NCBI GenBank assembly: GCA_035534315.1
Contig: DATLSD010000006.1
Coordinates: 10,839-74,838 of the forward strand
From: Elusimicrobiota bacterium
GTDB taxonomy: Bacteria; Elusimicrobiota; Elusimicrobia; UBA1565; UBA9628
Direction of reading: 5' to 3'
Length of the DNA: 64,000 nucleotides
The notes beneath the pieces were generated by a model. That model saw nothing but the letters and a program-made list of their open reading frames with translations, was not told where the DNA came from and did no database searches. Made by a program: the position numbers and the translations under genes. This document shows, in pieces, positions 14,392 through 35,093 of this stretch (positions are counted from its first letter, which is position 1; every line of letters begins with the position of its first letter).

Positions 14392-14402
<11 letters not shown>

Positions 14403-17732: not shown

Positions 17733-17744
17733 GTCGATTCCTCG

Positions 17745-19817
<2,073 letters not shown>

Positions 19818-19818
19818 T

Positions 19819-21585
19819 TTAGCGCGCCCCCATCATCATGAGATGCTCGGCGATCGGCCCAAGGGCCAGAGCGGGCACGAAGGTCAAGGCGCCGACGATG
19901 AGCACCACCGAGATCAGCAGCAGGACGAAGAGCGGCGTATGCGTCGGGAGCGTGCCCTCGCCCGCGGGCACGATCTTCTTGCGGGCAAGCGAGCCCGCGA
20001 TGGCCAGCGTCGGCACCATGATCCAAAAGCGGCCCATGAGCATGACGAAGCCGCCCAGGACATCGTAGAACGGCACGGCGGCGTTTAAGCCCGCGAAGGC
20101 GCTGCCGTTGTTGTTGGCCATGGAGGAGAACGCGTAGAGGATTTCGGAGAAACCGTGCGCGCCGGGGTTGGCCAAGGACGCCTTGGCCGCGGCGCTCACG
20201 ACGGCGATGGCCGTGGGCACGAGGACGATGATGGGCATAATGAGGATGACGACGGAGGCCATCTTCATCTCGTAGGCCCCGATTTTCTTGCCTAGGTATT
20301 CCGGCGTGCGGCCGACCATCAGCCCCGCGACAAAGACCGCGACCAAGACGAAGACGAGCATGCCGTAGAGCCCGCAGCCTATGCCTCCGAAAATGACCTC
20401 GCCAAGCTCGATGAGGAAGAGCGGCACCATCCCGCCCAAGGGCGTGAACGAATCGTGCATCGAGTTGACCGAGCCGTTGGAAGCCGCGGTCGTGGCCGCG
20501 GCCCACAGCGCGGAGTCCGTGACGCCGAAGCGCGCCTCCTTACCCTCCATGTTGCCTCCGGGCGAGGCGGCCAAGCCTTCCTGCGCGGCCGTGCTCACGC
20601 CCATCTTGGCGATGAGCGGATTGCCCTTCTGTTCGCTCACGGTGCACAGGACCAGCAAGGGAATCAGGATAAGCGTCATGGCGGCCATGATCGCCCAGCC
20701 CTGTCTGCGGTCTTCGACCATGACGCCGAACATCACGCAGCAAGCGGCGCCTAAGGCCAGGATGGCCCAGAGTTCTGCAAAGTCCGAGAGCGGCGTGGGG
20801 TTCTCGAAAGGATGCGCCGAGTTCACGTTGTAGTAGCCGCCGCCGTTGGTGCCGAGCTGTTTAATGGCGATCTGCGAGGCCACGGGACCAAGCGGCAGGC
20901 TCTGCTCCGCGGCCGTCGCGGTTTTTCCGTTGTCCTGATAAGAGACGGGCTCCATCATTGTCGCCTGGGCTGAGGGTCCGAAAGTCTGCGGCACGCCCTG
21001 CCAAACAAGGAACAGGGCCATGATGAATGAGAGCGGCAGCAGGATGTAGAGCGTCGAGCGCGTTAGGTCGGCCCAGAAGCTGCCCAGGTTCTCGGATTCC
21101 TTCCGGCGCAGAGCGCGGATGAAGGCGGCTAGCACGGCCATCGCGGTCGCCACCGACAGGAAGTTTTGCACGGTCAGGCCCAGCATCTGGGTCAGGTAGC
21201 TCATGGTGGTTTCGCCGCCGTAGTCCTGCCAATTGGTGTTGGTGGCGAAGCTCACCGCCGTGTTGAACGCGCTGTGCGGGATAACGGCTGCGAGCGCCAA
21301 GGGATTGAGAGGCAAGAATCCCTGCAGGCGCTCGAGCGCGTAGACCGCGAGCACGCCTAAGAAGTTAAAGGCGAGCGCCGCGGCAGCGTAGGTTTTCCAG
21401 CCCATGGCCTCGTCCGGATCGACGCCCGTCAAGCGGTAGAGCGCGCGCTCCACGGGGCCCAACACGCGGCCCAGCCAGCCCGGCTTGCCCTCATAGACGC
21501 GGGCCATATAGGGCCCGTAGATTGCCCCGAAGCCGATGACGGCGGCGAAATAGAGAACGTCCTGCGCTATGGCGTTTGTAGTCAT
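19819..21585 (-). CDS. kdpA: Potassium-transporting ATPase subunit A
   Basis: 588 aa polytopic membrane protein in the kdpFABC order. Confidence 0.95.
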
Positions 21586-21592
21586 GGTATCC

Positions 21593-21682
21593 TCAGAAGA
21601 GTTCCGGCTTGAACAAGGCGATGAATAGGTAGACGCACAACCCGCACGACAAGGCGAGCGCGACCCAATAAAGCACGGTCAT
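21593..21682 (-). CDS. kdpF: Potassium-transporting ATPase subunit F (29-aa micropeptide)
   Basis: Hand translation gives MTVLYWVALALSCGLCVYLFIALFKPELF, a single TM of KdpF-like length and ending, 7 nt upstream of kdpA. It is below the ORF-track size cutoff. Confidence 0.6.
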   Translation of the reverse strand: MTVLYWVALALSCGLCVYLFIALFKPELF

Positions 21683-21777
21683 GATGGACCTCCGGAAAGG
21701 CGATCGAAAAGCTCGACCATGATCCAAGTGACCGCGAAGAAGGCGGCGGTCAAGCCCAAGTACATGAGATCGTCCAT
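21679..21777 (-). CDS. Additional 32-aa hydrophobic micropeptide translationally coupled (ATGA) to kdpF
   Basis: Hand translation gives MDDLMYLGLTAAFFAVTWIMVELFDRLSGGPS. A strong AAGGAGAAAAAAC-ATG RBS precedes it. Confidence 0.35.
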   Translation of the reverse strand: MDDLMYLGLTAAFFAVTWIMVELFDRLSGGPS

Positions 21778-21799
21778 GTTTTTTCTCCTTAACAAGCTC

Positions 21800-22990
21800 T
21801 TAGAAGGTCAATCCCAATGATGTCGCAATATATCCATCGGTTCTCGTCAACCCGTGGACCGCGGGGAAAACGGCGTTTTCCGCCCAGTACTCGCGCAGTT
21901 CGTTGCGCCACACGAGCTGTTTTTGCAGCTGCACGTCGACGTTGACCGAGGCCGCGTTCGTCTTGAACGCCCCGGCGCCCGTCTGCACGACGACTTGATC
22001 CGGATCAGCGAAGCGCTCGACGCGCGCGGCCATCGCCACGCGCTGGGTGAGTTGGTAGCGGCCGATGAGCGAGCCTCCATACCACGACGAAAAATCGCCC
22101 TTCCCCGCGGGCTTATGCTGGATGCCGTAGTCCGCGGAGGCCTCGAACTGCCATTTGCCCCAGGCAGGAGTTTTGAAGATGAAGTCGTTCAGGAAACGTC
22201 CTTGGTTTCCGACTTTCTGGCCCCAAAACGTGTTGTAAGTCGCCGACCAGCCGCCTTCCGGCGCGTAGGAGATCTGGGTTCCCAGGGCCTTGTTCTGGTT
22301 GTTCTCCGAGATGTTCTGCCAGCCGTTGATGAGATGCAGTTGTCCCGACCAATCGTCGTTGAACTGATAGGCCGCCCAGACGCCGGATTGGTAGGTCGGC
22401 GAGAACTCGCCCATCATGGACCTGGTGTAGGTCCAGTTGTCCTTCGAAATGAAGCTTTCCATGCCGATGTGCGAGAAATAGATGCCGCCGTTGATCCAGA
22501 GCTTGTCCGTGACGCGGTATCCCGCCCACGCCTCCTGGATGAACTGCGAGACGCTGGGCCCGCTGACCTTGCCGACCGTCGGCTCGCCGGCGTAGGTTGC
22601 CTGCACGGAGTTGCCGGTTTGCAGGGCGAAGCGGCCATGCACGCGATCGGAATTGACGACGGCGTCCATATAGGCGAGATTGACGTTGAACTCGTTGGCC
22701 CGGGCGGCTTGGGCGGTGTAGGCCCGATCGAAATTCGGCGGCTGATCGAAATCGTAGGCGTAGTAGGTGTCGATGAAGCCGCCGAACTTGACCGGCAAGT
22801 CCGACGCCCAGGAGGAAGCCGCGGGCGGGGGCGATAGGCGCGTCTCCAACTCCAAAAGCCGCTTATTTAAGTCGTTGACTTGCCGGCTTAATGACTGGAT
22901 ATCCGAAGAGGATGCCTGTTGAGCCCGTGCCAACCGCGGAGCTAACGGGAATACAAAGGCAAGGAGCATCATCAAACGTCGCTGCGTCAT
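21800..22990 (-). CDS. Outer-membrane beta-barrel porin (OprO/OprP-like) upstream of the kdp operon
   Basis: Signal peptide (MTQRRLMMLLAFVFPLAPRLARAQ), an N-terminal coiled-coil, a Tyr/Gly-rich barrel and a C-terminal Phe. Architecture is similar to 47797..49092. Confidence 0.5.
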   Translation of the reverse strand: MTQRRLMMLLAFVFPLAPRLARAQQASSSDIQSLSRQVNDLNKRLLELETRLSPPPAASSWASDLPVKFGGFIDTYYAYDFDQPPNFDRAYTAQAARANEFNVNLAYMDAVVNSDRVHGRFALQTGNSVQATYAGEPTVGKVSGPSVSQFIQEAWAGYRVTDKLWINGGIYFSHIGMESFISKDNWTYTRSMMGEFSPTYQSGVWAAYQFNDDWSGQLHLINGWQNISENNQNKALGTQISYAPEGGWSATYNTFWGQKVGNQGRFLNDFIFKTPAWGKWQFEASADYGIQHKPAGKGDFSSWYGGSLIGRYQLTQRVAMAARVERFADPDQVVVQTGAGAFKTNAASVNVDVQLQKQLVWRNELREYWAENAVFPAVHGLTRTDGYIATSLGLTF

Positions 22991-23043
22991 GGAAGGTATC
23001 CTATAAATCACTTTAATTCTCGCAACAAAATGGCTGCGAGCGC

Positions 23044-23493
23044 TCATAAAGGGACGCCTGCCAGCAAGCCGTGCAAGTCTTCTCGTGTCCGAGCTTCGGA
23101 TAAGGCGCGGAGCAACCCTTTGCGTCCGGAGATCTGGCTGAGCGCCGATAAGGGGTAGAGATGGCCGGAGATGTTCTCCCGCGACACTGCGAGCAAGAAG
23201 GCAAAGCCCGTAGTTTTCTTTTCCCGGCCGGCGGCATTATTCGGCGGCGCCAGCCGCGCTATCGCCAGCGCCGGCCCGGAGATGCCGTCCGCTGAGCCGC
23301 AGAGCAAAGCCGAGCCGTGATCCGTCCTTTTATAAACCCCGGATTTCGGGGCAAGGGCGGAGCGCGCGATTTCCTCGCGGCAGGACTCCGGGACGGGCAA
23401 AGCCTTCGCCAGGGCTTGAACGATTTCCGCTGCGTCGCGCGCCTCCAGAGATTCCAAGATCGACTCGGGGCGCAGGATATTTCCGAGCGTCAT
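23044..23493 (-). CDS. PTS EIIA type-2 (PtsN-like) domain protein, divergent
   Basis: 149 aa, PtsN-length and paralogous to the adjacent EIIA-Ntr. The canonical AIPH motif is not evident. Confidence 0.45.
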   Translation of the reverse strand: MTLGNILRPESILESLEARDAAEIVQALAKALPVPESCREEIARSALAPKSGVYKRTDHGSALLCGSADGISGPALAIARLAPPNNAAGREKKTTGFAFLLAVSRENISGHLYPLSALSQISGRKGLLRALSEARTREDLHGLLAGVPL

Positions 23494-23562
23494 GAAGATT
23501 AGAGTACGTCTGCGGAGCGTTAGAAAGCCATTGTCGGGGCGTTGGCGCGGCGTTAGCGCGGG

Positions 23563-24030
23563 CTAAAGGGAAACAGCGGCGAGCAGACCCAGAAACTCCG
23601 GAGCGGAGGTCGCGCGGTTGAGCGACTTCAAGAGCTTCGCGTCCGCGGCCAAGCGGCTGAGCGCCGCCAAGACTTGCAGGTGGGAGCGGGGATCCGATTC
23701 CGGGACCGCCAAAAGGAAAATCAACGATACGGGCTTGGCATCGGCCGCGGCGAACTCGATGGGCTTGGCCAAGCGGCCCGCCGCCAGCAGCGGTTTGCCG
23801 AGCCTGGGCGTGCGCGCGTGCGGAATGGCGACGCCTCTGCCGATTCCCGTGGAACCGGCTTTTTCCCGGGCCAGGACGGCTTCGCGCAGCAAGTTCCTGT
23901 CGTCCTGAGTCCCCGGCAATTCCAGGGCGCCCACAAGCAGGGAAATCGCCGCTTCGCGATCGGCGGCCTGAAGCGGGACGATGATGGACTCGGGCCGAAC
24001 GATGTCCGACAGGAGCATGATGCCGATCAT
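23563..24030 (-). CDS. ptsN: Nitrogen-related PTS EIIA (EIIA-Ntr)
   Basis: 155 aa with the GRGVAIPHAR active-site His motif and the PTS EIIA type-2 fold pattern. Confidence 0.7.
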   Translation of the reverse strand: MIGIMLLSDIVRPESIIVPLQAADREAAISLLVGALELPGTQDDRNLLREAVLAREKAGSTGIGRGVAIPHARTPRLGKPLLAAGRLAKPIEFAAADAKPVSLIFLLAVPESDPRSHLQVLAALSRLAADAKLLKSLNRATSAPEFLGLLAAVSL

Positions 24031-24068
24031 AGCTTATCCCGCGTTAGAAGTCCGTTAGAACAGGAGCC

Positions 24069-24083
24069 TGGCACGTTCATTGC
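24069..24083 (+). promoter_or_regulatory. Candidate sigma-54 (-24/-12) promoter TGGCACG-N4-TTGC
   Basis: The sequence tggcacgttcattgc matches the RpoN consensus; it lies 14 nt upstream of the ATG at 24097. Confidence 0.4.
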
Positions 24084-24096
24084 GGACTATTTTGCC

Positions 24097-24693
24097 ATGA
24101 ACACGAAAATCGCCGGTCTCGCCGCTAAAATCGCCGATCTGGAGCGCGAGCTAGAAGAGGAGCTTGAGGAAGAACTCGAACGCACGCGAACCAAATTCCA
24201 CTACAGCATTGAGAAGGGCCTCGCCGCCTTCTCGCGCGAGACCCGCGCGCTTCACGACACGCTGCGCCAAAGCGTCCCCGCGTTCCTTTGGCAGACGCCG
24301 GTGAAAAGCCTTTTGGTCGCGCCCGTGATCTACTCCCTCATCATTCCTCTGGTCCTGATCGATCTCTGGGTGCGGCTTTATCAAGCGGTCTGCTTCCCGG
24401 TCTACCGCATCGCCAAGGTGGAGCGCGCCCGCTACGTCATTCTCGATCGCGGGCGCCTTCCCTATCTCAACTGGATTGAGCGAATCAACTGCGACTACTG
24501 CGGCTACGCCAACGGCCTCGTCGCCTACGTCCGCGAGGTGGCCTCGCGCACAGAACAGTACTTCTGTCCCATTAAACACGCGCGCCATCTTGCCGGAGCT
24601 CATGCGCGTTACCAGGACTTTCTAGACTTCGGCGACGCCCAGGGCTATAAGAATGAGTTGCGCCAGCTACGCTCGGATCTGCGCGGCGAATAA
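24097..24693 (+). CDS. Hypothetical membrane protein with coiled-coil N-terminus and a CxxC...C...H cluster
   Basis: Internal start MNTKIAGLAAKIADLERELEEE, one TM (LLVAPVIYSLIIPLVLIDLWVRLY) and CDYCGYANG...CPIKH. The longer track ORF overlaps ptsN. Confidence 0.45.
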   Translation: MNTKIAGLAAKIADLERELEEELEEELERTRTKFHYSIEKGLAAFSRETRALHDTLRQSVPAFLWQTPVKSLLVAPVIYSLIIPLVLIDLWVRLYQAVCFPVYRIAKVERARYVILDRGRLPYLNWIERINCDYCGYANGLVAYVREVASRTEQYFCPIKHARHLAGAHARYQDFLDFGDAQGYKNELRQLRSDLRGE

Positions 24694-24740
24694 AGAAATA
24701 TTGAGTAAAACAAATAATATTTTTAATAAGGCATATTTGT

Positions 24741-24749
24741 TGCTATAAT
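24741..24749 (+). promoter_or_regulatory. Extended -10 promoter element (TGcTATAAT) in an AT-rich island
   Basis: The only strongly AT-rich stretch nearby (24700..24757). The TGnTATAAT ends 9 nt before the GTG start at 24759, which implies a leaderless mRNA. Confidence 0.4.
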
Positions 24750-24758
24750 CGTTCATTC

Positions 24759-25325
24759 GTGAAAATATATAACAGCGCCTTCGAGAGCGGCCGTTGGGCT
24801 CCCGGAGCGGTGGCGGCTGTCGGGAAGTTCGACGGCATCCACTTGGGCCACCAAAAAATCATCCGTTTGGCCGTCGCCCGGGCCAAAAAACTCAAAGTTC
24901 GCTGCTTGGTCGTGACCTTTGATCCCCTGCCGGACCAATTCCTGCTCCTTTATTCCTACCGGCCGCTCCTCTCCGAGGCGGAAAAAATGGAGATTCTGGG
25001 CCGAATGGGCGTAGACGCCGTGGTGATCATGCCCTTCGATAAGGAACTCGCCTGCCTCTCGCCCGAAGCCTTCGCGGTCACCGTCTTAAAAGAGCAGTTG
25101 AAGGCGCGCGAAATCGTCGTGGGCGAGGATTTTTGCTTCGGGAAGGACCGCGCCGGAACCGCGGAGGCTCTCATAGAGTTCGGCCGGGCCATGGGCTTTA
25201 AGGTCCACGCCGTTCCCCTGGTCCGCGCCGCCGGCCAAAAAATCAGCGCTTCTCGAATACGCGAGCTCATCGAGTCCGGGAACCGGGCGGGAGCCGAGAA
25301 ACTGCTCGGCCGCGCGCCGGCCTAG
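24759..25325 (+). CDS. FMN adenylyltransferase (FAD synthetase, RibF N-terminal domain only)
   Basis: 188 aa with the GKFDGIHLGHQ nucleotidyltransferase motif; no riboflavin-kinase domain. Confidence 0.7.
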   Translation: MKIYNSAFESGRWAPGAVAAVGKFDGIHLGHQKIIRLAVARAKKLKVRCLVVTFDPLPDQFLLLYSYRPLLSEAEKMEILGRMGVDAVVIMPFDKELACLSPEAFAVTVLKEQLKAREIVVGEDFCFGKDRAGTAEALIEFGRAMGFKVHAVPLVRAAGQKISASRIRELIESGNRAGAEKLLGRAPA

Positions 25326-25347
25326 GGAGCCTCCCATTTCAAAAGCC

Positions 25348-28260
25348 ATGGACGGCGCCGCCCCGGACGCCCGGTTAAAGGGCGTCATCGAGCGCCTGGC
25401 CGAACTCCTGCCGGCGCAGGGGCCCATCGGCATTTTCATCCACCATAACACTCTCCACGCGTTCGAATCCCAAGATTTCGAGCAGGCCGTCGTTTCGGCG
25501 GGCGAAAAGCTGTCCTGCGAGCCTTTTCTACCGGAAGAGGAGTACCGCCGCGAATTTCAAAGCGGCCGCATTCTGGAGCAGGACCTCCGCTGGGCCCTGG
25601 GCGATGAACTCGGCCCGGACGCCGCGCGCGCGGTTTTCGACGATCTCACGCGCCTGGAGTTGCGGATCCGCATCGCCCGGTACGGAATCCCGAAGGCCGC
25701 CGGAGCGTCCTTGGCGTGGCTGTTGCAAGAAACCCCGGTTCTGCGGCGCTTCCGGGAGGACATCCCCAACGACGCGCGCCAAGCGCTGCGAAACGGGAGC
25801 AGCGCCCGCGATCTGTGGCGGGCTTGCCTCGCCGCGGCGCGGAAAACCCCGGCGGCGCCTTTTGTTCCCCCCGCTCCCCCCGCGCGCCACCGCGATCTTT
25901 TGCTGGCGGCGGCCGGAACGGACACCGACGCGTGGGTCAATCCCGTGCTCATCAGGCTCCTGGGCGCCTTCCTTGATCAAGGCTTGGCGCGCTGGAGCCT
26001 GCCGGAAGCCTCGCGCGGCCTTTACGCCTGCTTTCTCCATCTCTACGCGAACAGCTGGGCGTCCCTTTGCGGCCGGTGGGCGGCGCGCCTTCCCGATCTT
26101 ATTCGGGAGGAACGCCGCTTGGGCTTGAGCCCCTCGGCGTCGCTTGAGCGCTCGCTGGAGGTCTTGGGCGTCGGCGGCGAAGAAGCCGCCGGCTTTCTGG
26201 AGGCGACCGCCCTGGCCCTGCGCGGCTGGGCCGGGATGATCCGGCAGCTTGAAGAGCGCCCCGACCGGGTCCCGGCGCGCTCGCGGCCCGCGGCGGTCAT
26301 GGAATACCTGGCGGTCCGGCTGCTTTTGGAGCGCGCGGCGCTCTCCTACGCGGCGAGCCGCTTGCCCGGCTTCGGCGCGACGCTCTCGGAGCTTCGCGCG
26401 CATTTGCGCGGCCTGCTTGAGCCGCCGCCTCTTGCCTCGGATGAGGAGCGCGCCTGGCAGATCTTCCACGCGGCCCAACTCTGCGGATTGACCGCGGCGC
26501 GGATAGGCGGGCTCTCCGCCGCGCAGGCCGCGGCGCTCGAGGCCGAGCTCGCCGGGTTTGACGAAACCAGCCGGCGGCGCGTCCTGCAGTCGGCCTATGA
26601 CCGCCATCTGCGCGGCCGCTTGTGCGACGCCTTGAGCGCGCGCGTGCCCGCCCCAACGCCGAGCCCCGCCGCCTACCAGGCGATTTTTTGCCTGGACGAG
26701 CGCGAGGAGTCCTTCCGCCGGCACCTCGAGGAAACCGCGCCCGATTGCGAAACCTTCGGGGCCGCGGGATTCTTCGGCGTGGCCATGTACTACCAAGGAG
26801 CGACCGACGCCCATCCGCGCCCCCTGTGCCCCATCGCCGTCAAGCCGCGGCACTACGTCGGGGAGATGAAAATCGATCCCTCGGCCGCGCTGGCGCGCTG
26901 GCGGCGCGTGCGCCGGCGGCAGTCCGGCCGGCTGGGCCAGCTTCTCCACCGGTTCAACGGAACTTTTCTCGGCGGCTACCTCATCACGACGGTCGCGGGC
27001 CCGCTTTCGATTCTGCCGCTGGTTCTGCGCGTGGTTTTCCCCGGCTTGGCCCGGCGCTGGTCCCTGGCCCTGCCCTTTTCCAAAACCCCGGCGACGAGGC
27101 TGCTGCTTGACCGCCGGCCGGAGGCTCCCCCCATCGGCGCGCATTACGGCTACACGAAAGAGGAAATGGCCGCCATCGTGGGAAATCTTCTGCGCGGCGC
27201 CGCAATCGCCGGGCGCCTGGCCCCCGTCGTCGTGGTGGCGGGGCACGGCTCCACCAGCCTCAACAACCCCCACGAATCCGCGCACGACTGCGGCGCCTGC
27301 GGCGGCGGGCGCGGCGGCCCCAACGCCCGCGCCTTCGCGCAGATGGCCAACGATCCGGCGGTGCGCGCGCTTCTCGCCCAAGACGGCCTGCGCGTCCCCG
27401 AGCAAACGCGGTTCATCGGCGCCCTGCGCAACACCTGCGACAACTCGGTCGAGTTTTTCGATTTGGATCTGCTGCCCCGGGAGCACGAAAAGCGCTTTGG
27501 CCGCATCGCGGCCGATTTCGCGCGCACGCGCCGCAAGGAGGCGCACGAGCGCTGCCGCCGGTTCGAGAATTTTCCGCTCTCCGGAGGCCACGGCGCGGCC
27601 CTGGCCCACGTGGAGGAGCGCGCGCACGATTTGGCCCAGCCGCGGCCGGAGTACGGCCACGCCTCGAACGCCTTTTGCGTCGTGGGCCGGCGCAGCCGCA
27701 CGCGCGGGCTTTTCCTGGACCGCCGCGCGTTTTTAACCTCCTACGATCCGACGCAGGACGAAGACGGCTCCATCTTGGAGAGCACGCTCGCCGCGGTGAC
27801 CCCGGTCGTGGCGGGAATTTCCCTCGAATACTACTTCAGCCGGGTCGACCCCTCCGGCTACGGCTGCGCGACCAAGCTCCCCCACAACGTCGCGAGCCTC
27901 CTGGGCGTCATGAACGGCACGCAAAGCGATCTGCGCACGGGCCTGCCCTGGCAGATGGTGGAGATTCACGAACCGGTCCGGCTTTTCCTGGTCGTCGAGT
28001 GCGCGCCCGAACGCTTCGAGAGCGTGCTCGAGCGCCTGCCGACCGTGCGCCGGCTTCTCGACGGGCGCTGGATATTCGCCGCCTGCCTCGACCCGAACTC
28101 GCGGGCTCTGCGGCTGCGTGGAACTGACGGCTACCGGCCTTGGACGGCCCAGGCGCCCCTGCCTTCCGTCGTAGGCGATTCCGCGTCCTGGTACCGGGGC
28201 AGGCGCGATCACCTGCCCATCGCCGAAATAATCCCGCCCCCCGAGGCGGCGCTTCCATGA
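25348..28260 (+). CDS. dabA: DUF2309/UPF0753 protein DabA (putative CO2-hydrating subunit of a DAB inorganic-carbon uptake complex)
   Basis: 970 aa with FIHHNTLHAFE and HESAHDCGACGG Cys/His clusters. Immediately followed by NuoL-like membrane subunits with ATGA overlap. Confidence 0.7.
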   Translation: MDGAAPDARLKGVIERLAELLPAQGPIGIFIHHNTLHAFESQDFEQAVVSAGEKLSCEPFLPEEEYRREFQSGRILEQDLRWALGDELGPDAARAVFDDLTRLELRIRIARYGIPKAAGASLAWLLQETPVLRRFREDIPNDARQALRNGSSARDLWRACLAAARKTPAAPFVPPAPPARHRDLLLAAAGTDTDAWVNPVLIRLLGAFLDQGLARWSLPEASRGLYACFLHLYANSWASLCGRWAARLPDLIREERRLGLSPSASLERSLEVLGVGGEEAAGFLEATALALRGWAGMIRQLEERPDRVPARSRPAAVMEYLAVRLLLERAALSYAASRLPGFGATLSELRAHLRGLLEPPPLASDEERAWQIFHAAQLCGLTAARIGGLSAAQAAALEAELAGFDETSRRRVLQSAYDRHLRGRLCDALSARVPAPTPSPAAYQAIFCLDEREESFRRHLEETAPDCETFGAAGFFGVAMYYQGATDAHPRPLCPIAVKPRHYVGEMKIDPSAALARWRRVRRRQSGRLGQLLHRFNGTFLGGYLITTVAGPLSILPLVLRVVFPGLARRWSLALPFSKTPATRLLLDRRPEAPPIGAHYGYTKEEMAAIVGNLLRGAAIAGRLAPVVVVAGHGSTSLNNPHESAHDCGACGGGRGGPNARAFAQMANDPAVRALLAQDGLRVPEQTRFIGALRNTCDNSVEFFDLDLLPREHEKRFGRIAADFARTRRKEAHERCRRFENFPLSGGHGAALAHVEERAHDLAQPRPEYGHASNAFCVVGRRSRTRGLFLDRRAFLTSYDPTQDEDGSILESTLAAVTPVVAGISLEYYFSRVDPSGYGCATKLPHNVASLLGVMNGTQSDLRTGLPWQMVEIHEPVRLFLVVECAPERFESVLERLPTVRRLLDGRWIFAACLDPNSRALRLRGTDGYRPWTAQAPLPSVVGDSASWYRGRRDHLPIAEIIPPPEAALP

Positions 28261-29579
28261 TCGCGCTGATTTTGCGCGGCGGCGTTCTCCTGGCTCTAGC
28301 GGCGCCGGCGCTGCTCTTGGCGGTCCTGGCTCTGCCGGGCTTTTTGGGCCGGCCGTGGAGCGAAAGCCGCGTGGGCCTCCTGACGCAGGCGGCTTTCCTC
28401 GCGTCCTTCGGGGCCGTCGCCGCGGCGGGCCTGGCCTACGCGGCGGGCGCGCGCGTCCCGCTCGTCATCCATCTGGGCGGCTGGTTCTCAAAGGACGGGG
28501 GCTTCTCCTTCGATCTGCTCGTGGACGGCTGGTCGCTCGGCTTCGCGGCGCTCTCGGTCGGCATCTGCGGGGTCGTCTCCTCATTTTCCTTCCGCTACCT
28601 CCACCGCGAGCCGGGATTTCAGCGCTACTTTATCCTGCTCGTCTGTTTCGTGGGCGGCCTGCTGCTCGTCGCCCTGGCCGGCTCGGTCGAAGTCTTGTTC
28701 GCCGGCTGGGAGCTCCTGGGCCTGAGCTCGGCGCTGCTTGTCGCCTTCTTCCACGAGCGCCCGGCGCCCGTCGACAACGGCTTTCGCGTGCTGGCCTTCT
28801 ACCGCATCGGCGACGCCTGCATGCTCTCCGCGGCCGTCCTGCTCCACCATTGGGCGGGCAGCGACAGCCTCTCTCTGCTCTTCTCGGGCGGCGCCGGCCA
28901 TCTCTCCCGCCTGGGCGCCGATCACGTCGTGACCATCGCGGTCCTTCTTATCGCCGCGGCCGCGGCCAAAAGCGCGCTGCTCCCCTTCTCCACCTGGCTG
29001 CCGCGCGCCATGGAGGGGCCCACGCCCTCAAGCGCGGTCTATTACGGCGCGCTCTCCATCCACGCTGGCTGCTTTCTCCTGCTGCGCGCCTCCTCCCTGG
29101 TCCAGTACTCGGCGGCCACGCGGATTTTGACCGCCGCGGCGGGATTGGCCACGGCGGGCTACGCCGCGCTATCGGGGCGCGCGCAGACCGACGTCAAGTC
29201 GAAGCTCTGCTTCGCGTCCCTCGCCCAAGTCGGCATCATCGTGGTCGAAATTTCCCTGGGCTTGAACACCTTGGCCTTCCTGCACATGTCCGGGAACATC
29301 TGCCTGCGGCTGCTGCAGTTCCTGAGCGCCCCCAACATCCTCCACGATCTTCATCAGTTGGAAAACGATCTGGGCGCGAGCCTGGCCGCGGCCGAGGAGC
29401 CGCCCGCGGCTTGGGGCGGCGCGCTTTATCTCTTCGCGCTCGAGCGCGGCTTTTTGGACGGCCTCATGGACCGCTGGCTGGCCGAGCCCCTGGAGCGGCT
29501 GGCGGCCGCGCTGGAGAGCCTCGATCGGCGGCTGTGCCGGATTCCGGCGGCCTTCTTCGGAGGCGGCGATGGCGCTTAG
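28258..29579 (+). CDS. dabB: NuoL/MrpA-like proton-conducting membrane subunit (DabB-like 1)
   Basis: PF00361-type motifs GWELLGLSSALLVAFF and WLPRAMEGPTPSSA; polytopic membrane protein. Confidence 0.7.
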
Positions 29580-30930
29580 CCGGCTTCTTTGGCTGGCCGC
29601 GCTCGCGGCCCTCCCGGGCGCGGTTTTGGCGGCCTACGCCTTGGGAACGCGCGGGCGGCGGCTTTATGCCCTCGCGGCGGCATGCGCCGCCGTCTTGACC
29701 GCCGTCGCGGCAATCCCCCTGGCGCTGGAATTTTTTGGGCCGCTGAGCTCCGGTTCGGCGCCCTTGGCGCTTCTTTCCACCGTGCTTGTTCCCTTCGCGG
29801 CGCTGCTCTGGCTGATGGCGGTCGTCACGACGCCGAGCGCCCGCATGGACGACGCGGGACTCGCCCGCACGGCCGCGGCGTGCCTGCTGGGAATGGCGGC
29901 GTTTTTGACCGCCGCGCCCGCGGCCCTGGTCCTGATTTGGATTGCGACCGCCGCGATTTTGGCGGCCGGCCACCGGGGTGCGCGCTTCAAGGCGGCGCGG
30001 CGCGTCATCTTCTCGCACTTGGGCCTCTCGGCTATTTTTCTCGCGGCGGGCGCGGCCTTGGCGGCCTGGGCGCGCGGCCGCGGCGACGCGGCCTTGGAGC
30101 AATGGGGCGTGGCCTTGATTCTCTCGGCCGTCGTGCTGCGCAAGGGAATATTCCCGTTCCACGCGTGGATCCCCGAAGTCTTCGACCAAGGCCGCATCGG
30201 GCCCGCGGCTCTTTTCAACGCGCCGCAGCTGGGCACCTACGCGGCGCTGGTCCTGGCGGTCCCCTATGCGTGCCCGACGCTTTTGAGAACAGCCGCCGGG
30301 CTGGCCCTCATCACCGCGGTTTACGGATCCTTCATGGCGCTCTACCAGGCGGACGCGCGCCGGGCCTGCGGATACCTCTTCGTGAGCCAGTCGGCGCTGG
30401 TCATCGCGGGCTTGGAGCTTCCCGGCCGCGGAGCCTTGGTCGGCGCGCTGCTCCTGTGGGTGTGCTCCGGCGTGGCCCTGGCCGGGCTCTCGCGCGCGGT
30501 CCTGGCTCTTGAAGCGCGCCGCGGGCGCCTGCGCCTGGACGTGCGCCACGGTGGCTACGAGCGCATGCCGCTTCTGGCCGTGAGCTTCCTCATCATGGGG
30601 CTGGCCGTCGCGAATTTCCCCGGCACGCTCGGCTTTATCGGCGGGGAGATGTTGGTGCGGGGCGCGGTGGATTCCTTTCCCGGCTTGGGGCTCTTCGCGG
30701 TGGCGGCCGTGGCGATGAGCGGCTTGGCGGCCATCCGGATGTATTTCTCCCTTTTCTGCGGCCGGAAAGATTCCGGCGCGCATTTGAAGATGGGCCGCGT
30801 GGAAAGCCTGGGCTTCGCCGCGGCGGCGCTGATCCTGCTGGGCTTCGGCCTGGCGCCCGGAGGCCTGACGCGCGTTCTCTCGCGCGCCAGCGCGGCGGTC
30901 ATGGCCTCAAGGCAAAGCCCAAACCGCTAG
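29569..30930 (+). CDS. Second NuoN/MrpD-like proton-conducting membrane subunit (DabB-like 2)
   Basis: 453 aa polytopic protein with its own FHAWIPEVFDQGRIGPAALF motif; overlaps the previous gene by 11 nt. Confidence 0.6.
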   Translation: MALSRLLWLAALAALPGAVLAAYALGTRGRRLYALAAACAAVLTAVAAIPLALEFFGPLSSGSAPLALLSTVLVPFAALLWLMAVVTTPSARMDDAGLARTAAACLLGMAAFLTAAPAALVLIWIATAAILAAGHRGARFKAARRVIFSHLGLSAIFLAAGAALAAWARGRGDAALEQWGVALILSAVVLRKGIFPFHAWIPEVFDQGRIGPAALFNAPQLGTYAALVLAVPYACPTLLRTAAGLALITAVYGSFMALYQADARRACGYLFVSQSALVIAGLELPGRGALVGALLLWVCSGVALAGLSRAVLALEARRGRLRLDVRHGGYERMPLLAVSFLIMGLAVANFPGTLGFIGGEMLVRGAVDSFPGLGLFAVAAVAMSGLAAIRMYFSLFCGRKDSGAHLKMGRVESLGFAAAALILLGFGLAPGGLTRVLSRASAAVMASRQSPNR

Positions 30931-30938
30931 AATAGCGC

Positions 30939-31157
30939 ATGCTTCTAAAGCTCAAGGTCCACCCCGCCTCGAAGAAGGCGGCCGTCAGCCGCAAGGGGCC
31001 CGACGCGTACGATGTCTGGGTGCGCGCCGAGGCCCGCGACGGCTTGGCCAATGACGAAGCGCTGGCCGCCTTGGCCCGGGAGCTCGGCGTGGGCCGCGAA
31101 AAACTGCGGCTTGTCAAAGGCTCCCGGACTCCGTCTAAAATCGTCCAGGTTTATTAA
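30939..31157 (+). CDS. DUF167 (YggU-like) small protein
   Basis: 72 aa with an LKLKVHPASKKAAV...LRLVKG pattern. Confidence 0.5.
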   Translation: MLLKLKVHPASKKAAVSRKGPDAYDVWVRAEARDGLANDEALAALARELGVGREKLRLVKGSRTPSKIVQVY

Positions 31158-31352
31158 AAAAACGAGGGCGGGATGGACCGATGTCCGTCCCGTCCTGTTC
31201 GCCGGTGCGGCGTTGCTTAAGTTCGCTATGAACTTCGCGTCGGCCTCCGGCTTTCTGGCCTCTCATATGGAGGCTCTTTTCATGGGCTTCGGGGTTTCCC
31301 CCTGCCCCTCGATTTTCAATGGTGCAACGTTTCGGCTACCCCGTAAAATTGA

Positions 31353-32669
31353 TTGGGAAACAAGCAGAAAAGTAGAATAAAACCCATGGTCGTGCTCAGC
31401 GCGCTTCTCCTGGCCCTTTGCCCCTGCGCCCGCGCCGCGAACAACGCACGGGAGCTTTCCGCCCTCTTCGCGAAAGAGAGCTTCAAGCGGGAAATCGTCA
31501 AGCCCCCGCTGGGCCTCTTGCGGCACGAGTACATCGTGCCTGACGGGCCCTACTTCCAGCTTTTCGACTGGGACATGTATTTTATGGGAACGGCCTTGAG
31601 CTACGACAAGGTCTCCAAGCCCGTCATGGGCTCGGTCGAGGACTTCCTGGACTTTGTGGACGAGTTCGCCGCCTGGACGGGCTACGCGCCGCGCGAAATC
31701 GCGCCCGACGCGCTCTGGGCCTTGCCCGAGATGTGCAAGCCCTTCCTGGCCCAGGCGGCGCTGCGGGCCTCGCTCACTTCAGGGAATTTCACTTGGCTTC
31801 TGGGCTCGGACTCGCCGCCGTCTAAATCCCTCGACTATCTCAAGCTCCAGCATTACGAGCGCCCGGACGAGGGCCCGCGCATTTCCTTCTACCAAAAACT
31901 CAAGGACACGCTTTCCTTTTGGGAGAACAACCGCCGCGCGAAAGACGGGCTCTTCGTCTGGTACAACGGGGTGGAAAGCGGCGCGGACAACAACCCCGCG
32001 GTCTCGGACGAGCCCTCGCAGATTACCGAGGGCGTCGACTTGCAGTGCTACATCTACCGCGAGTACCTGGCCCTGGCATTTCTGGCGCACAAGCTCGGAC
32101 GCGCGCAGGATGCCGCGCTCTACCGGCACAAAGCTCAGGCGCTCAGGGCGCTTATCCAAAAGCGCATGTGGTCCGAAAAGGACGGGACCTTCTGGAACAT
32201 CGACAGCCGGACCGGCGCCTTCGTCAAGATCAAGACCTGGACCAATTTCGTCCCGCTCTGGGCCAAGGTCGCGACGCCCGCCCAGGCCAAACGCATGATC
32301 AAAGAGCATCTCTTGAATCCGGCCGAGTTCTGGTCACCCAACGGCATCAGGAGCCTGGCCAAGGACGAGGCGCTCTACGACGCGCGCGCGGGCTACTGGC
32401 AAGGCCCGGTGTGGATTCTCGCCAACTACCTCATGATGCACGGCCTTTTAAACTACGGCTACGACTCCCAAGCTCGGCAGCTCGCGCGCAAGACCCAGCG
32501 GCTGCTGGTCGCGGACATCAAGGCCAGCGGCGGGATGAACGAGAACTACGACCCGGAGACCGGCGCGCCCGACGCCAGCGGGCACTTCGTGAGCTGGAAC
32601 CTGCTGGCCCAGCACATGGCGCAGGAAGCCGCCTCGGGCCAAGACCCGACCGCGATTCCCGCCTGGTAG
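31353..32669 (+). CDS. Secreted six-hairpin glycoside hydrolase, trehalase (GH37)-like
   Basis: FQLFDWDMYFMG and YWQGPVWILANYL resemble trehalase signatures. A signal peptide follows a likely internal start at about 31386 (MVVLSALLLALCPCARA). Confidence 0.5.
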   Translation: MGNKQKSRIKPMVVLSALLLALCPCARAANNARELSALFAKESFKREIVKPPLGLLRHEYIVPDGPYFQLFDWDMYFMGTALSYDKVSKPVMGSVEDFLDFVDEFAAWTGYAPREIAPDALWALPEMCKPFLAQAALRASLTSGNFTWLLGSDSPPSKSLDYLKLQHYERPDEGPRISFYQKLKDTLSFWENNRRAKDGLFVWYNGVESGADNNPAVSDEPSQITEGVDLQCYIYREYLALAFLAHKLGRAQDAALYRHKAQALRALIQKRMWSEKDGTFWNIDSRTGAFVKIKTWTNFVPLWAKVATPAQAKRMIKEHLLNPAEFWSPNGIRSLAKDEALYDARAGYWQGPVWILANYLMMHGLLNYGYDSQARQLARKTQRLLVADIKASGGMNENYDPETGAPDASGHFVSWNLLAQHMAQEAASGQDPTAIPAW

Positions 32670-32897: not shown

Positions 32898-35059
32898 AAG
32901 CGCAGCCGGACGCCGCCGCCCCCGCCGTAGGCCGAGTCCCATTGGCCGACGAGCGAGACGTCCTGGCTCGCCGCAAACGCCAGGCCGAGGCGGTTCTCCC
33001 ACCGATCGTGGGTGTCGTATTCGGCTTCCCCGAAAGCGGAGAGCCGCGGCGTGAGTTGGAAGGATTTCTTCAGATTAGCCCTGGCCCCGCCGTCCGAATC
33101 CAGCCATAGGCGGGACTCGATCAAGAACGGAAGCAGGCAGCGGACGCCCGCCACCCCCCGCGCGACGGACGCCTCGTTCCTGCTTTTTTCCGCGTCCGCC
33201 CCGGCAAAGACGGTGAAGAAGGCGTTGATGTAGCGGTTATAAGTGGGCACGACCTCCCAGCGGCGCGACGCGGAGGGCAGCCATCCCGCCTCCCAGTCGG
33301 TCCTGAAAATATTCCTGGTGTCCGCCAAGAAGACCGAGCCCTGGGTCATGTCGCTCAGCGCGTCCGCGCGCCCGTAGAAATAGAACGGATCGCGGTAGAG
33401 CTTCGGGCGGACCGCGGCCAGCGCCGGAGAAAGCCGGTAGCCCGCGTAGTGGACGACCCGGGCCATGCCGCTTTCCATGTGATAGAGGATGTGGCAGTGG
33501 AAAAACCAGTCGCCCTTGGCGTCGGGCAGGAACTCGATGACGACCGTGGACATGGGCGGCACGTCCACCGTGTGCTTGAGCGGCGAGTAGCGCCCCTGGC
33601 CGTTCAAGACCCGGAAAAAGTGGCCGTGCAGATGCATGGGATGGCTCATCATGGTCCGGTTGATGAGGATAAAGCGCGTCACTTCTCCCTCGCGCACGCG
33701 GATGGACCGGCTCTCCGCCAAAACTTTGCCGTTGATCATCCAGACGTAGCGGCGCATGTCGCCGTCGAGCGTAAGGCGGTAGGTACGCGCGGGCCCCGCG
33801 GGAAACGCCGTCGGCCGGACGGATTTAAGCCGCGCGTAGGGAGGGCCCGGGCGCGCGTCCGCGCCCATGCTTCCCGTGTTCATGCCCGACATAGTCATCC
33901 CCGACATGCCGCCCTTATCCATGCCCGCCGTCATGGTCGGCTTGTCGAACTGGCCCTCGGCCACGGCTTTGTCGCTCATGCCCATCGCGCCCGCGGGCGT
34001 CAACGCGAACACGCGCGCGAAAGAAATTTTTCCCGGCATCATCTTGTAGAGATCGGGCTTGGGAACCTCGGGCGCCGGATGCGGAGGGCCTTGGCCGAGC
34101 CAAATGGAGGCATGGCCCGAGCCGTCCTGGGCGGTGGCCCTGAGCTCGTAGCTGCCGCCGGGCGGAACCTTGACGAGCACGTCGTAGGTCTCGGCAATTG
34201 CGATCAGGAAGCGGTTTTCCTTATCCGGCTCGACGTCCTGCCCGTCCGCCGCGATGATGGTCATCGGCCCGCCGGCGAACTGGAGGAAAAAAAATGTGGA
34301 CGCGGACGCGTCGATGAGGCGCAGGCGGACCAAGTCGCCGGTCTTGGCCGCGACGCGGATTTGCGGAGCGCCGTTGGCGAGAAACAGGTTGTAGTAGACG
34401 TCCGAAACGTCCATGGGCGGCATGCGCAGCAGTTCGCGCTTAAGATAATCGGAAAGCTCGCCTCTTTTGAGCGCGCCCCAAAGGCTCTGGGCGTTTTTCT
34501 TCCGGATGGAAAACCAATCGCTGCCGCGCTTAAGCGCGCTGAGGATTTTCCTGGGATTTTCGTCCGTCCAGTCGGAAAGCACGACGGCCTTGTCCACGTC
34601 GGGGTGGTAGCGCGGCTTCGCGCCCGGCCCCGGCGCTATCACGATGGCGCCGTAGAGTCCGCGCTGCTCCTGAAACCCGCTGTGCGAATGGTAAAAATAC
34701 GTGCCCGACTGCTTGACGTTAAAGGTGTAGACAAACGTCGCGCCCGGCTTGATGGGAGCGTAGGTCACGTAGGGAACGCCGTCCATGGCATTGGGGACGA
34801 GCATCCCGTGCCAATGCAGGGAGGTAGGCGCGGGCAAATCGTTATGGACGCGGATAACGGCCGTGTCGCCTTCCTGAAAATAGAGCGTGGGGCCCGGAAT
34901 CGTCCCGTTGATCGCCAAGGCGGCGGCCGTTTTGCCGGTGAAATCGACTTTTTTCCCGCCGATGCTGAGATCGTAGGTCACGGTCTTGGCGCGCAGCGGG
35001 ACGCCGGGCGCGAAAAGGCAGGCAAGAACGCCCCACAAAAACGCCCGTTTTATCTTCAT
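32894..35059 (-). CDS. copA: Multicopper oxidase (CopA-like) with Met-rich segment and a C-terminal CopB-like outer-membrane barrel extension
   Basis: 721 aa with HWHG, HSHS and HCHILYH copper sites. A Met-rich run (GMSGMTMSGMNTGSMG) precedes a ~250-aa C-terminal extension ending ...GGGVRLRF. Confidence 0.75.
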   Translation of the reverse strand: MKIKRAFLWGVLACLFAPGVPLRAKTVTYDLSIGGKKVDFTGKTAAALAINGTIPGPTLYFQEGDTAVIRVHNDLPAPTSLHWHGMLVPNAMDGVPYVTYAPIKPGATFVYTFNVKQSGTYFYHSHSGFQEQRGLYGAIVIAPGPGAKPRYHPDVDKAVVLSDWTDENPRKILSALKRGSDWFSIRKKNAQSLWGALKRGELSDYLKRELLRMPPMDVSDVYYNLFLANGAPQIRVAAKTGDLVRLRLIDASASTFFFLQFAGGPMTIIAADGQDVEPDKENRFLIAIAETYDVLVKVPPGGSYELRATAQDGSGHASIWLGQGPPHPAPEVPKPDLYKMMPGKISFARVFALTPAGAMGMSDKAVAEGQFDKPTMTAGMDKGGMSGMTMSGMNTGSMGADARPGPPYARLKSVRPTAFPAGPARTYRLTLDGDMRRYVWMINGKVLAESRSIRVREGEVTRFILINRTMMSHPMHLHGHFFRVLNGQGRYSPLKHTVDVPPMSTVVIEFLPDAKGDWFFHCHILYHMESGMARVVHYAGYRLSPALAAVRPKLYRDPFYFYGRADALSDMTQGSVFLADTRNIFRTDWEAGWLPSASRRWEVVPTYNRYINAFFTVFAGADAEKSRNEASVARGVAGVRCLLPFLIESRLWLDSDGGARANLKKSFQLTPRLSAFGEAEYDTHDRWENRLGLAFAASQDVSLVGQWDSAYGGGGGVRLRF

Positions 35060-35093
35060 CGCTTGCCGGCCGAGCCGGCGGGCCCGGAATGAA

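Follow-up and report, generated by a model that had tools for sequence, protein, structure and literature searches.

A DabA operon with a short NuoL-type and a full-length NuoM-type membrane subunit in an Elusimicrobiota bacterium: a candidate third architectural class of DAB-type carbonic anhydrase

The window, a 64,000-nucleotide stretch of an Elusimicrobiota contig, contains a three-gene operon that probably encodes an energy-coupled carbonic anhydrase of the DAB (DAC/MpsAB) type, with an architecture that sets it apart as a third class, in which CO2 hydration would be driven by the PMF. All features lie on the forward strand: dabA (25348..28260, 970 aa, matching PF10070), a short NuoL/DabB-type membrane subunit, here ORF2 (28257..29579, 440 aa, matching PF00662 and PF00361), and a full-length NuoM/MrpD-type third membrane subunit, here ORF3 (29569..30930, 453 aa, matching PF00361). 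As read from the sequence, dabA and ORF2 share an ATGA start/stop overlap (28257..28260), and the ORF2 stop overlaps the ORF3 start by 11 nt (ATGGCGCTTAG, 29569..29579). A sequence-only reading of this DNA had described dabA, the ATGA coupling to a 440-aa PF00361 protein, and an overlapping 453-aa PF00361 protein with its own HAW(L/I)P motif, and every one of these features is present where it was placed. That reading took DAB modules as described to consist of two genes, a premise now outdated: DAB1 is a DabA-DabB-DabC heterotrimer (bioRxiv 10.64898/2026.05.01.722082; PMC13144422). Three-subunit DABs (DabABC) and NuoM-like genes beside ybcC/dabA (noted in 2017) are already known, but by its sequence features the A-B-M clade (named for the gene order DabA, ORF2, ORF3) is an architecture distinct from known DABs, with co-varying differences from the canonical ones: the finger Glu of DabA is lost, and the TM5 Glu of ORF2 and the TM12 Glu of ORF3 are kept. 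As an uncharacterised DAB layout, it may reveal the wiring and evolution of such CO2 pumps.

Among GTDB species, each scanned through one genome, ORF3 relatives were identified in 94 species representatives; 177 clusters at 50% identity match ORF3 with E <= 1e-30. DabA, ORF2 and ORF3 are adjacent on one strand in A-B-M order in 76 fetched loci, from the soil and groundwater phyla Elusimicrobiota, Acidobacteriota, Myxococcota and Planctomycetota and from Binataceae. For most of the 76 loci, the estimated spacing between the dabA stop and the ORF2 start falls within a cluster of -1 to -10 nt, and the ORF2/ORF3 overlap, similarly estimated, is an identical -11 nt in ~35 of the 76. The three genes are co-inherited in at least five phyla, and their arrangement is far beyond chance. 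The three-subunit variant suggested from the sequence alone is supported by this conserved order and by the two distinct classes of membrane subunit. Every carrier found is a MAG. The DUF167 (YggU-like) gene reported downstream is real (30939..31157, 72 aa, PF02594 E 2.9e-14), and a homologue is found downstream only in an 89%-identical relative (locus L006); it adjoins the module but is probably not a member of it. A 122-aa ORF (31012..31380) was ruled out as the DUF167 gene, having no Pfam match.

The sequence-only reading had also entertained a duplicated or split DabB. A sequencing or assembly frameshift that broke a single DabB gene into the two membrane ORFs, or a recent tandem copying of DabB, would fit the 11-nt overlap, the PF00361 match in both ORFs and the frameshifted pieces present in some long-read MAG loci. 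Yet in 65-70 intact loci each of the two ORFs is conserved as a gene of its own, and about 70 independent assemblies, spread over five phyla, keep the ORF2 stop and a separate ORF3 start. Short length is a consistent trait of ORF2 homologues (the best 120 all measure 369-465 aa, and 423-465 aa apart from a partial entry and another of 404 aa), ORF3 contains a TM1-14 set of its own, and the PF00361 regions overlap (profile positions 3-229 in ORF2, 82-291 in ORF3), so the ORFs are not consecutive halves. Phylogeny of the membrane subunits sets ORF2, DabB and NuoL against ORF3, NuoM and NuoN in 100/100 bootstraps, placing the two ORFs in different deep PF00361 classes, which also disposes of duplication; within its class, a sister relationship between ORF2 and canonical DabB is not robust (43/100). 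Frameshift, split and duplication are already refuted by these comparative data, and retain only a vanishing probability.

DabA is, to judge from homology, a cytoplasmic beta-carbonic-anhydrase-like subunit and a member of a distinct DabA clade. The DUF2309/DabA identity proposed earlier is upheld by HMM (PF10070 E 2.8e-229, covering the whole 747-position profile), and residues 390-934 match DabA2 (PDB 9rd0_A, E 3.9e-65). BLAST scores are 830-1230 bits inside the clade, whereas canonical DabA1 and DabA2-type proteins score 190-335 bits. The Cys2His zinc site and Asp-Arg dyad are intact: zinc ligand C448 and the D450-R452 dyad (26689..26703, motif FCLDERE) and zinc ligands H633 and C648 (27244..27291, GHGS...HDCGAC), with codons checked, align to C351, D353, R355, H524 and C539 of DabA2, and all five residues are present in 59/59 clade members. 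The membrane "finger/elbow" motif (residues 543-565, 26974..27042, located by alignment to 9rd0_A) is wholly hydrophobic, and the sole hydrophobic peak of DabA lies at 541-563. T548 occupies the site of the essential E444 of DabA2; this position is T in 39/59 clade members, A in 15/59 and acidic in none, whereas the finger Glu is present in 5/5 canonical DabAs tested. The authors of the T. albus DAB1 study doubt that the finger has any part in proton transfer.

ORF2 is a NuoL/DabB-type module cut down to TM1-11 plus cytosolic C-terminal helices, with TM12-15 absent. It falls under all NCBIfam cut-offs (NuoL, 165 bits versus 556; TIGR01960 for ndhF3, 87 bits versus 588.7), is 30% identical to DabB1 of Nitrobacter hamburgensis across residues 103-408, a stretch that takes in the helices after TM11, and is without the final ~180 aa of that protein. 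Its AF2 model has a pLDDT of 82, and Foldseek alignments to NuoL/ND5 cover only ~360 columns. E152, R183, D186, K238, H269, H343, R351 and H363 are invariant, H363 sharing its spacing with H328 of T. albus DabB. The TM5 Glu, equivalent to the interface residue E144 of NuoL, is present in 66/66 ORF2 sequences, versus F, V, S, L or I in five canonical DabBs; DabB2 has Ile151 at that site, and I151E impairs function (PMC13144422). ORF2 has Arg in place of the TM11 Lys of NuoL and DabB, and DAB2 activity is abolished by K347A. Arg is a poor proton carrier, and this counts against the mechanism proposed below.

ORF3 (PF00361 E 6.8e-20, with FHAWIPE at residues 197-203) is predicted to form a complete 14-TM NuoM-like fold alone, with TM7 and TM12 broken. 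Its top NCBIfam match is NuoM (94.9 bits versus a cut-off of 263.8), and its AF2 model (pLDDT 88.7, pTM 0.89) gives Foldseek TM-scores of 0.82-0.86, normalised to ORF3, to NuoM, ND4, NdhD and MrpD over its full length. R191 (68/69 sequences), Q220 (67/69), Q274 (69/69), E360 (68/69) and E412 (69/69) are conserved. E360 is the TM12 Glu, which is kept; the TM5 Glu is lost, the TM7 Lys is Arg, the TM8 Lys is gone (Gln220 being the nearest polar residue), and the TM11 His is Ser or Ala.

In the proposed mechanism, the complex would act as a vectorial carbonic anhydrase, turning cytoplasmic CO2 into HCO3- one way only with the PMF as driver. In canonical DABs, the finger glutamate of DabA and TM12-13 of DabB make up the periplasmic half-channel; the A-B-M clade has neither, so some replacement path is needed. 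By analogy, ORF3 would lie beside ORF2 as NuoM lies beside NuoL, in the place taken in DAB1 by DabC, which is NuoM-proximal and essential. TM12 Glu360 of ORF3 may communicate with the NuoL-type interface switch of ORF2 (E152/R183 and K238/D186), and charge or protons would then run along H269, H343 and R351 of ORF2 to its extended TM11 and to the cytosolic helices that dock onto DabA in DAB1, which would gate the active site of DabA. Such a lateral path would stand in for the half-channel.

Because several residues of the canonical proton path are gone from ORF3 (the TM5 Glu and TM8 Lys, with Arg at the TM7 Lys and Ser/Ala at the TM11 His), it may instead serve the same three-subunit DAB complex purely as a scaffold, structural or allosteric, a role also proposed for DabC; it would then relay neither protons nor charge, the proton path lying wholly in ORF2 and DabA. 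DabC is essential though hydrophobic and without a water chain, and the ORF3 and DabC profiles are collinear over 227 columns (with an hhalign homology probability of only 47%). However, ORF3 keeps both discontinuous helices, its buried polar residues (R191, Q220, Q274, E315, E360 and E412) are near-invariant, ORF2 keeps the E144-type Glu that is lost in DabBs without an M-type neighbour, and the finger Glu and TM12-13 of the canonical half-channel are absent, so that a pure scaffold seems rather unlikely, though it deserves to be kept in mind.

The likely physiological role of the complex in these mostly heterotrophic lineages, by analogy with work on MpsAB and DAB, would be to supply bicarbonate at ambient CO2. 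No RuBisCO, carboxysome, PII or other CO2-related neighbours were seen around the operon, and no other nuo, ndh or mrp genes flank it; its genomic context is heterotrophic, with carbon-fixation genes absent. This context would also suit a function other than CO2 uptake, such as reverse operation in which an exergonic DabA reaction drives ion export, Na+ in place of H+, or another DabA substrate. Ion export, with more ions for more membrane subunits, was proposed in the COGNAT study (PMC5700660), a Na+ link has been argued for MpsAB, and replacement of Lys by Arg, as in both membrane subunits, is uncommon in proton wires. Nevertheless, the beta-carbonic-anhydrase zinc site is complete and, like the Asp-Arg dyad, invariant, the characterised relatives DAB1, DAB2 and MpsAB all accumulate Ci and are protonophore-sensitive, Na+ dependence is absent in DAB2, and heterotrophs commonly have DABs, all of which makes such functions improbable.

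The "clade C" ybcC operons of the COGNAT study (Biol Direct 2017, PMC5700660), in which a nuoL homologue and an extra COG1008 (NuoM) gene follow ybcC (COG3002), are probably the same operon type. That study was a neighbourhood observation only, predating known DAB function and without analysis of truncation, altered residues, kinship with DabC or taxonomic spread.

DAB1 (references: Halothiobacillus neapolitanus Hneap_0907-0909, the T. albus cryo-EM structure and N. hamburgensis plasmid locus L005) similarly has three subunits: a PF10070 zinc carbonic-anhydrase-like DabA of ~1000 aa, a NuoL-type DabB that touches DabA through its extended TM11 and cytosolic helices, and a NuoM-related third membrane protein, with residues 194-428 of ORF3 collinear with 13-244 of DabC. 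However, DabC is ~250 aa (roughly TM7-14), without a Pfam match and hydrophobic at the proton positions, whereas ORF3 has 453 aa, PF00361, 14 TM helices and the TM12 Glu; DabB1 is 559-565 aa with TM12-15, which the 440-aa ORF2 lacks; and the finger Glu is present in DabA1 but absent from the A-B-M clade. The gene order of DAB1 is A-C-B or B-C-A, and it adjoins carboxysome and RuBisCO genes, unlike the A-B-M operon.

DAB2/DAC/MpsAB (DabA2-DabB2, PDB 9rd0) shares the identical zinc site and Asp-Arg dyad, a NuoL-like DabB TM1-11 with TM7 Lys and TM11 His, and, presumably, PMF-coupled vectorial carbonic anhydrase activity. Its two genes run B-A, and LysR often precedes them (loci L087-L090); DabB2 has 15 TM helices, a short HL helix, Ile for E144 of NuoL and Lys on TM11, and E444 of DabA2 makes the periplasmic half-channel with TM12/13. 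In the A-B-M clade, E444 is replaced by T/A, TM12-15 are absent, the TM5 Glu is kept, the TM11 Lys is Arg, and a NuoM-type subunit is present in addition.

The cyanobacterial CO2 uptake systems NDH-1MS/MS' (NdhF3-NdhD3-CupA/CupS and NdhF4-NdhD4-CupB) also encode an L-type plus M-type antiporter-like pair with a cytoplasmic zinc CO2-hydrating protein, and they act as vectorial carbonic anhydrases, as the A-B-M system is proposed to do, but Cup proteins are unrelated to PF10070, and NdhF3 and NdhD3 belong to an NDH-1 complex that is redox-driven, whereas the A-B-M operon has no flanking ndh/nuo genes. With NuoL/NuoM of complex I and MrpA/MrpD of Mrp, the membrane subunits share the same folds, with TM7 broken, and TM12 also in ORF3; ORF2 retains counterparts of the two ion pairs at the NuoL interface (E144/R175 and K229/D178), and ORF3 the E407-type TM12 Glu of NuoM, which faces NuoL in complex I. 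Both ORFs nevertheless fall far under the NuoL, NuoM and Mrp equivalog cut-offs, ORF2 is without TM12-16 and the long lateral helix, ORF3 is without the TM5 Glu and TM8 Lys, and the partner is a carbonic-anhydrase-like protein rather than a redox module.

The four genes of the region are all co-oriented: dabA (25348..28260, +; 970 aa, PF10070 E 2.8e-229 over the full profile), ORF2, a short NuoL/DabB-type membrane subunit (28257..29579, +; 440 aa, PF00662 plus PF00361 positions 3-229 of 294), ORF3, a third membrane subunit of the NuoM/MrpD type (29569..30930, +; 453 aa, PF00361 positions 82-291), and a DUF167 gene (30939..31157, +; 72 aa, PF02594 E 2.9e-14). The start of ORF2 lies within the ATGA closing dabA, ORF2 and ORF3 overlap by 11 nt (ATGGCGCTTAG), and residues 197-203 of ORF3 read FHAWIPE. 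All the elements named in the sequence-only reading (DabA followed by two PF00361 proteins of 440 and 453 aa, ATGA coupling, overlap, HAWIP motif and a DUF167 gene downstream) are thus real, and the DUF2309 homology of DabA is upheld by HMM (PF10070, 763.8 bits versus a cut-off of 25, positions 1-747). A 122-aa ORF that overlaps the end of the DUF167 gene (31012-31380, +) was ruled out as the DUF167 gene; it matches nothing in Pfam or NCBIfam and is probably no gene. A weak sigma-70-like site (31349-31378) precedes a GH63/trehalase-like gene (31353-32669). Sites found in a promoter and terminator scan of 24000-31800 were no more numerous than in shuffled sequence, and the whole 64-kb window contains no tRNA or tmRNA gene (ARAGORN) and no Rfam family at gathering score.

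When one representative genome for each GTDB species was searched with an ORF3 alignment, 94 species proved to encode an ORF3 relative. The 80 loci fetched belong to Elusimicrobiota, Acidobacteriota (mostly Vicinamibacterales), Myxococcota (Polyangiales, Enhygromyxa and Sandaracinaceae), Binataceae and Planctomycetota; all carriers found are metagenome-assembled genomes (MAGs), and the closest homologues of the window proteins are MAG proteins, 89-94% identical, by which the window is assigned to an Elusimicrobiota bacterium. In a library of 1.84 billion representatives, the ORF3 relatives with E <= 1e-30 fall into 177 clusters at 50% identity. A tblastn search of 72,556 plasmids with ORF3 gave zero matches, so neither a cultured nor a plasmid-borne example came to light. 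Homologues of DabA, ORF2 and ORF3 are adjacent on one strand in 76 loci, where the estimated distance from dabA stop to ORF2 start is mostly between -1 and -10 nt and that from ORF2 stop to ORF3 start is -11 nt in approximately 35 loci, these distances being extrapolated from alignments and some of the long-read assemblies among the carrier MAGs being frameshifted. Gene calls on independent metagenome contigs give DabA, ORF2 and ORF3 homologues of 966/452/465 aa and 998/450/484 aa, and the best 120 ORF2 homologues span 369-465 aa, all of them 423-465 aa barring one partial and one 404-aa entry.

In a neighbour-joining tree with few outgroups, built without MrpA, MrpD, NdhF3 or NdhD3 sequences, ORF2 and ORF3 each form a monophyletic group (100/100 bootstraps), and ORF2, the canonical DabBs and NuoL are split from ORF3, NuoM and NuoN in 100/100; ORF2 is sister to canonical DabB in only 43/100, so the tree does not separate this placement from one beside NuoL. 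These opposite sides of the tree and the conserved separate genes indicate that ORF2 and ORF3 are two anciently distinct PF00361 classes. Of the interpretations offered from sequence alone, the three-subunit variant stands, but the split or duplicated DabB does not: separate, adjacent ORF2 and ORF3 genes of distinct classes in 76 loci contradict a gene split by a frameshift, and placement across the 100/100 split contradicts a recent duplication, so that halves or copies of one gene are excluded. In one long-read MAG (L073, 3647-7993), DabA and ORF2 are read as one 1448-aa ORF. This is either a natural DabA-DabB fusion, of a kind that the DAB1 paper reports (bioRxiv 10.64898/2026.05.01.722082), or the product of an indel error; frameshifts are plain in several of its long-read sister MAGs.

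The window DabA aligns with the solved DabA2 of the two-subunit system DAB2 (PDB 9rd0_A, E 3.9e-65). The zinc site (C448, H633 and C648, aligned to C351, H524 and C539 of DabA2) and the Asp-Arg dyad (D450 and R452, aligned to D353 and R355) are kept in 59/59 members of the window clade, that is, the relatives with the gene order dabA-ORF2-ORF3 (A-B-M, where M is ORF3). In sequence this DabA clade lies far from the DabA1 and DabA2-type proteins, to which its bit scores are 190-335, against 830-1230 inside the clade. The finger, a DabA membrane motif (residues 543-565), has T548 in the window and T or A across the clade at the position of the finger Glu, and carries no acidic residue at all in the clade. 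This Glu is present in 5/5 canonical DabAs, DabA1 included, and is E444 in DabA2, where E444A and E444Q abolish DAB2 activity.

ORF2 is NuoL-like yet falls under every curated cut-off (165 bits versus 556 for NuoL, NF005141; 138 bits versus 920 for the best MrpA model). Its AlphaFold model (pLDDT 82) matches NuoL/ND5 by Foldseek over approximately 360 columns only, equivalent to TM1-11, past which come an extended TM11 helix (337-372) and helices 385-395 and 398-433. ORF2 aligns to the DabB1 of N. hamburgensis through the post-TM11 cytosolic segment, ending at DabB1 residue 382/565, and is without the last ~180 aa of DabB1; TM12-15 are absent. It is an L-type module with the DabA-docking helices kept. 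The TM5 Glu is kept in 66/66 ORF2 sequences (E152 in the window) and, with R183, D186 and K238, makes up both NuoL interface ion pairs. The TM11 proton triad of DabB2 (H339, H343 and K347, all essential) is replaced in ORF2 by H343, N347 and R351, the Lys position being Arg in 66/66 ORF2 sequences and Lys in NuoL and five DabBs. N347 (29295-29297) corresponds to NuoL H338 and to DabB2 H343, the latter essential in DAB2; the residue is Asn in the window and 9/65 aligned relatives and His in the other 56, and all four Elusimicrobiota sequences of a 9-sequence tree sample have Asn.

The model of ORF3 (pLDDT 88.7, pTM 0.89) has a complete NuoM/ND4/NdhD/MrpD-like fold (TM-score 0.82-0.86, normalised to ORF3) with discontinuous TM7 and TM12 both present, and its scores are 94.9 bits versus 263.8 for NuoM (TIGR01972) and 70.6 bits versus 542 for MrpD. 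Several elements of the proton path are lost: its own TM5 Glu is gone, Arg stands at the TM7 Lys position, and the TM8 Lys is missing, with a near-invariant Gln220 as the closest polar residue. The main rival to an active part for ORF3 in coupling is that it serves as a scaffold only, as is proposed for DabC in DAB1; beside these losses stands the TM12 Glu (E360), kept in 68/69 sequences, whose counterpart in complex I faces NuoL. Aligned by hhalign with a 26-sequence DabC profile, the ORF3 profile gave a match that is no more than suggestive (probability 47%, E 1.9e-4, 227 columns in collinear order, ORF3 residues 194-428); with one DabC sequence in place of the profile, significance was not reached (probability 1.5%). 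The DabC profile also matches ND5 and ND4 (E 5e-6 to 1e-4) and aligns with Nqo13 residues 201-445. From its alignment to these parts of ORF3 and Nqo13, DabC looks like a TM7-14 remnant of an M-type subunit. The PDB chains include DAB2 (9rd0) and no DAB1 or DabC.

The window operon combines an intact carbonic anhydrase-type site in DabA, a complete M-type module in ORF3 and tight genetic coupling of the three genes. ORF3 would occupy the NuoM/DabC position, and its TM12 Glu would couple to the E152/R183 plus K238/D186 switch of ORF2; charge or protons would then run along H269, H343 and R351 of ORF2 to the TM11 extension, which would gate DabA. Such a lateral route, which would replace the missing half-channel of finger Glu and TM12-13, is proposed because of a co-variation in the aligned sequences: the lost finger Glu, the lost TM12-15, the kept TM5 Glu and the residue pattern of ORF3. 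This co-variation is the main argument for the lateral route and an indirect one, and the Lys-to-Arg changes call for caution.

More tentatively, and with some doubt on our part, the window clade might preserve an ancestral state with two modules, as in complex I, that gave rise to DabC and DAB2. A laterally coupled pair of L-type and M-type antiporter subunits (complex-I/Mrp-like) would have driven a buried beta-carbonic anhydrase; DabC of DAB1 would be what is left, in degenerate form, of the C-terminal part of the M-type subunit, whereas DAB2 would have lost that subunit wholly, compensating with the finger Glu and DabB TM12-13. If so, the two-module arm could shift the H+/CO2 stoichiometry, for example to 2 H+ per CO2, which would let bicarbonate build up when PMF is low or CO2 very low, as in soil heterotrophs.

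Two cryo-EM studies of 2026 disagree in part on how DABs drive carbonic anhydrase one way: in one, protons are transferred by the DabA finger Glu and DabB TM12-13, and the other doubts that role. The window clade is a natural experiment on this point, having neither finger Glu nor TM12-15 and still an invariant active site under strong conservation; it has a full NuoM-like module besides, and its NuoL-type switch between subunits is still in place. It could reveal which coupling elements are dispensable, the ancestry of the essential DabC and variation in ion stoichiometry among DABs. It would also bring abundant, uncultured lineages of soil and groundwater (Vicinamibacterales, Polyangiales and Elusimicrobiota) within the range of energised CO2 hydration, and the engineering of CO2-concentrating mechanisms gives compact Ci pumps a practical interest.

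In the window, the operon is neighboured by genes of FAD synthetase, DUF167, a GH63-like hydrolase, a multicopper oxidase and Kdp, with no carbon-fixation genes nearby. The physiological role may be to supply bicarbonate to heterotrophs at ambient CO2, by analogy with what has been published on heterotrophs that carry MpsAB or DAB; the lack of carbon-fixation genes near the operon also fits. Clustering of neighbours across the loci gave no conserved partner (no PII, LysR, SulP or RuBisCO) save an ArsR-family HTH gene (PF01022), which immediately precedes dabA in 27 of ~76 loci, including the closest related locus, L006. This gene may be the operon's usual regulator, lost in the window.

The block of DAB and DUF167 genes (25343-31152) is collinear with L006 at 89% identity. 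The ArsR region of L006 (3352-3780, ~420 bp) has no counterpart in the window at 25279-25348, between the FAD-synthetase gene and dabA. That gene (24759-25325, +), 22 nt upstream of dabA, encodes a 188-aa FAD-synthetase-only RibF (PF06574) without a riboflavin-kinase domain and with no room for one. Relative to L006, the window has ~11 kb of extra DNA (13684-24757) containing kdpA, an OmpL-like porin gene and two PTS-EIIA(Ntr)-like genes, and a further 2.2 kb (32909-35107) with a three-domain multicopper oxidase. The DAB operon (26000-30000) has a GC content of 0.70, where the flanks have 0.61-0.66, and a strongly negative AT skew (-0.37 at 28-30 kb); together with the presence of 50-60% identical operons in five phyla, these features hint at horizontal transfer of the module.

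Among known systems, complex I is distinguished by ORF2 and ORF3 scoring under its equivalog and subfamily cut-offs, with no nuo operon around the window genes; Mrp antiporters by unreached MrpA and MrpD cut-offs and no adjacent small mrp genes (mrpB, C, E, F, G); and cyanobacterial NDH-1MS (NdhF3/NdhD3/CupA) by 87.2 bits versus 588.7 for TIGR01960 and by a DabA that matches PF10070 only. The DABs compared were DAB1 on an N. hamburgensis plasmid (dabB1-dabC-dabA1-PII, adjoining cbbLS/csoS2) and four DAB2-type plasmid loci in dabB-dabA order. The premise that described DAB modules have two genes holds for DAB2, a DabA2-DabB2 heterodimer (PMC13144422), but not for DAB1, a heterotrimer with a small, essential DabC that occupies the NuoM-helix position beside NuoL, its proton-path residues replaced by hydrophobic ones (bioRxiv 10.64898/2026.05.01.722082). 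In addition, a 2017 study (COGNAT) reported that ybcC (dabA) upstream of a nuoL homologue is often trailed by extra COG1008 (NuoM) or COG0659 genes, its authors speculating that more subunits move more ions (PMC5700660). Thus, a three-subunit DAB is not new and the operon type had been glimpsed before; our literature search found no description of the anatomy or function of the A-B-M operon. The window operon shares with DABs in general the PF10070 subunit, the Cys-His-Cys zinc site with Asp-Arg dyad and an adjacent co-oriented NuoL-type subunit, but not the TM11 His-His-Lys triad or the DabA finger Glu. Compared with DAB1, whose DabC is small (~250 aa; 253 aa in N. hamburgensis) and has no Pfam domain, ORF3 is 453 aa long, matches PF00361 and has E360 at a position that is hydrophobic in DabC, and ORF2 (440 aa, TM1-11) is shorter than DabB (~560 aa, TM1-15). 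DAB2 has two genes, dabB (~500-550 aa) then dabA (~800-855 aa), whereas the window has three in A-B-M order, and ORF2 is without TM12/13, which in DAB2 are proposed to build a periplasmic half-channel jointly with the finger. Canonical DabBs have F, V, S, L or I at the NuoL E144 position (Ile151 in DabB2, where I151E impairs function; PMC13144422), but ORF2 keeps the Glu.
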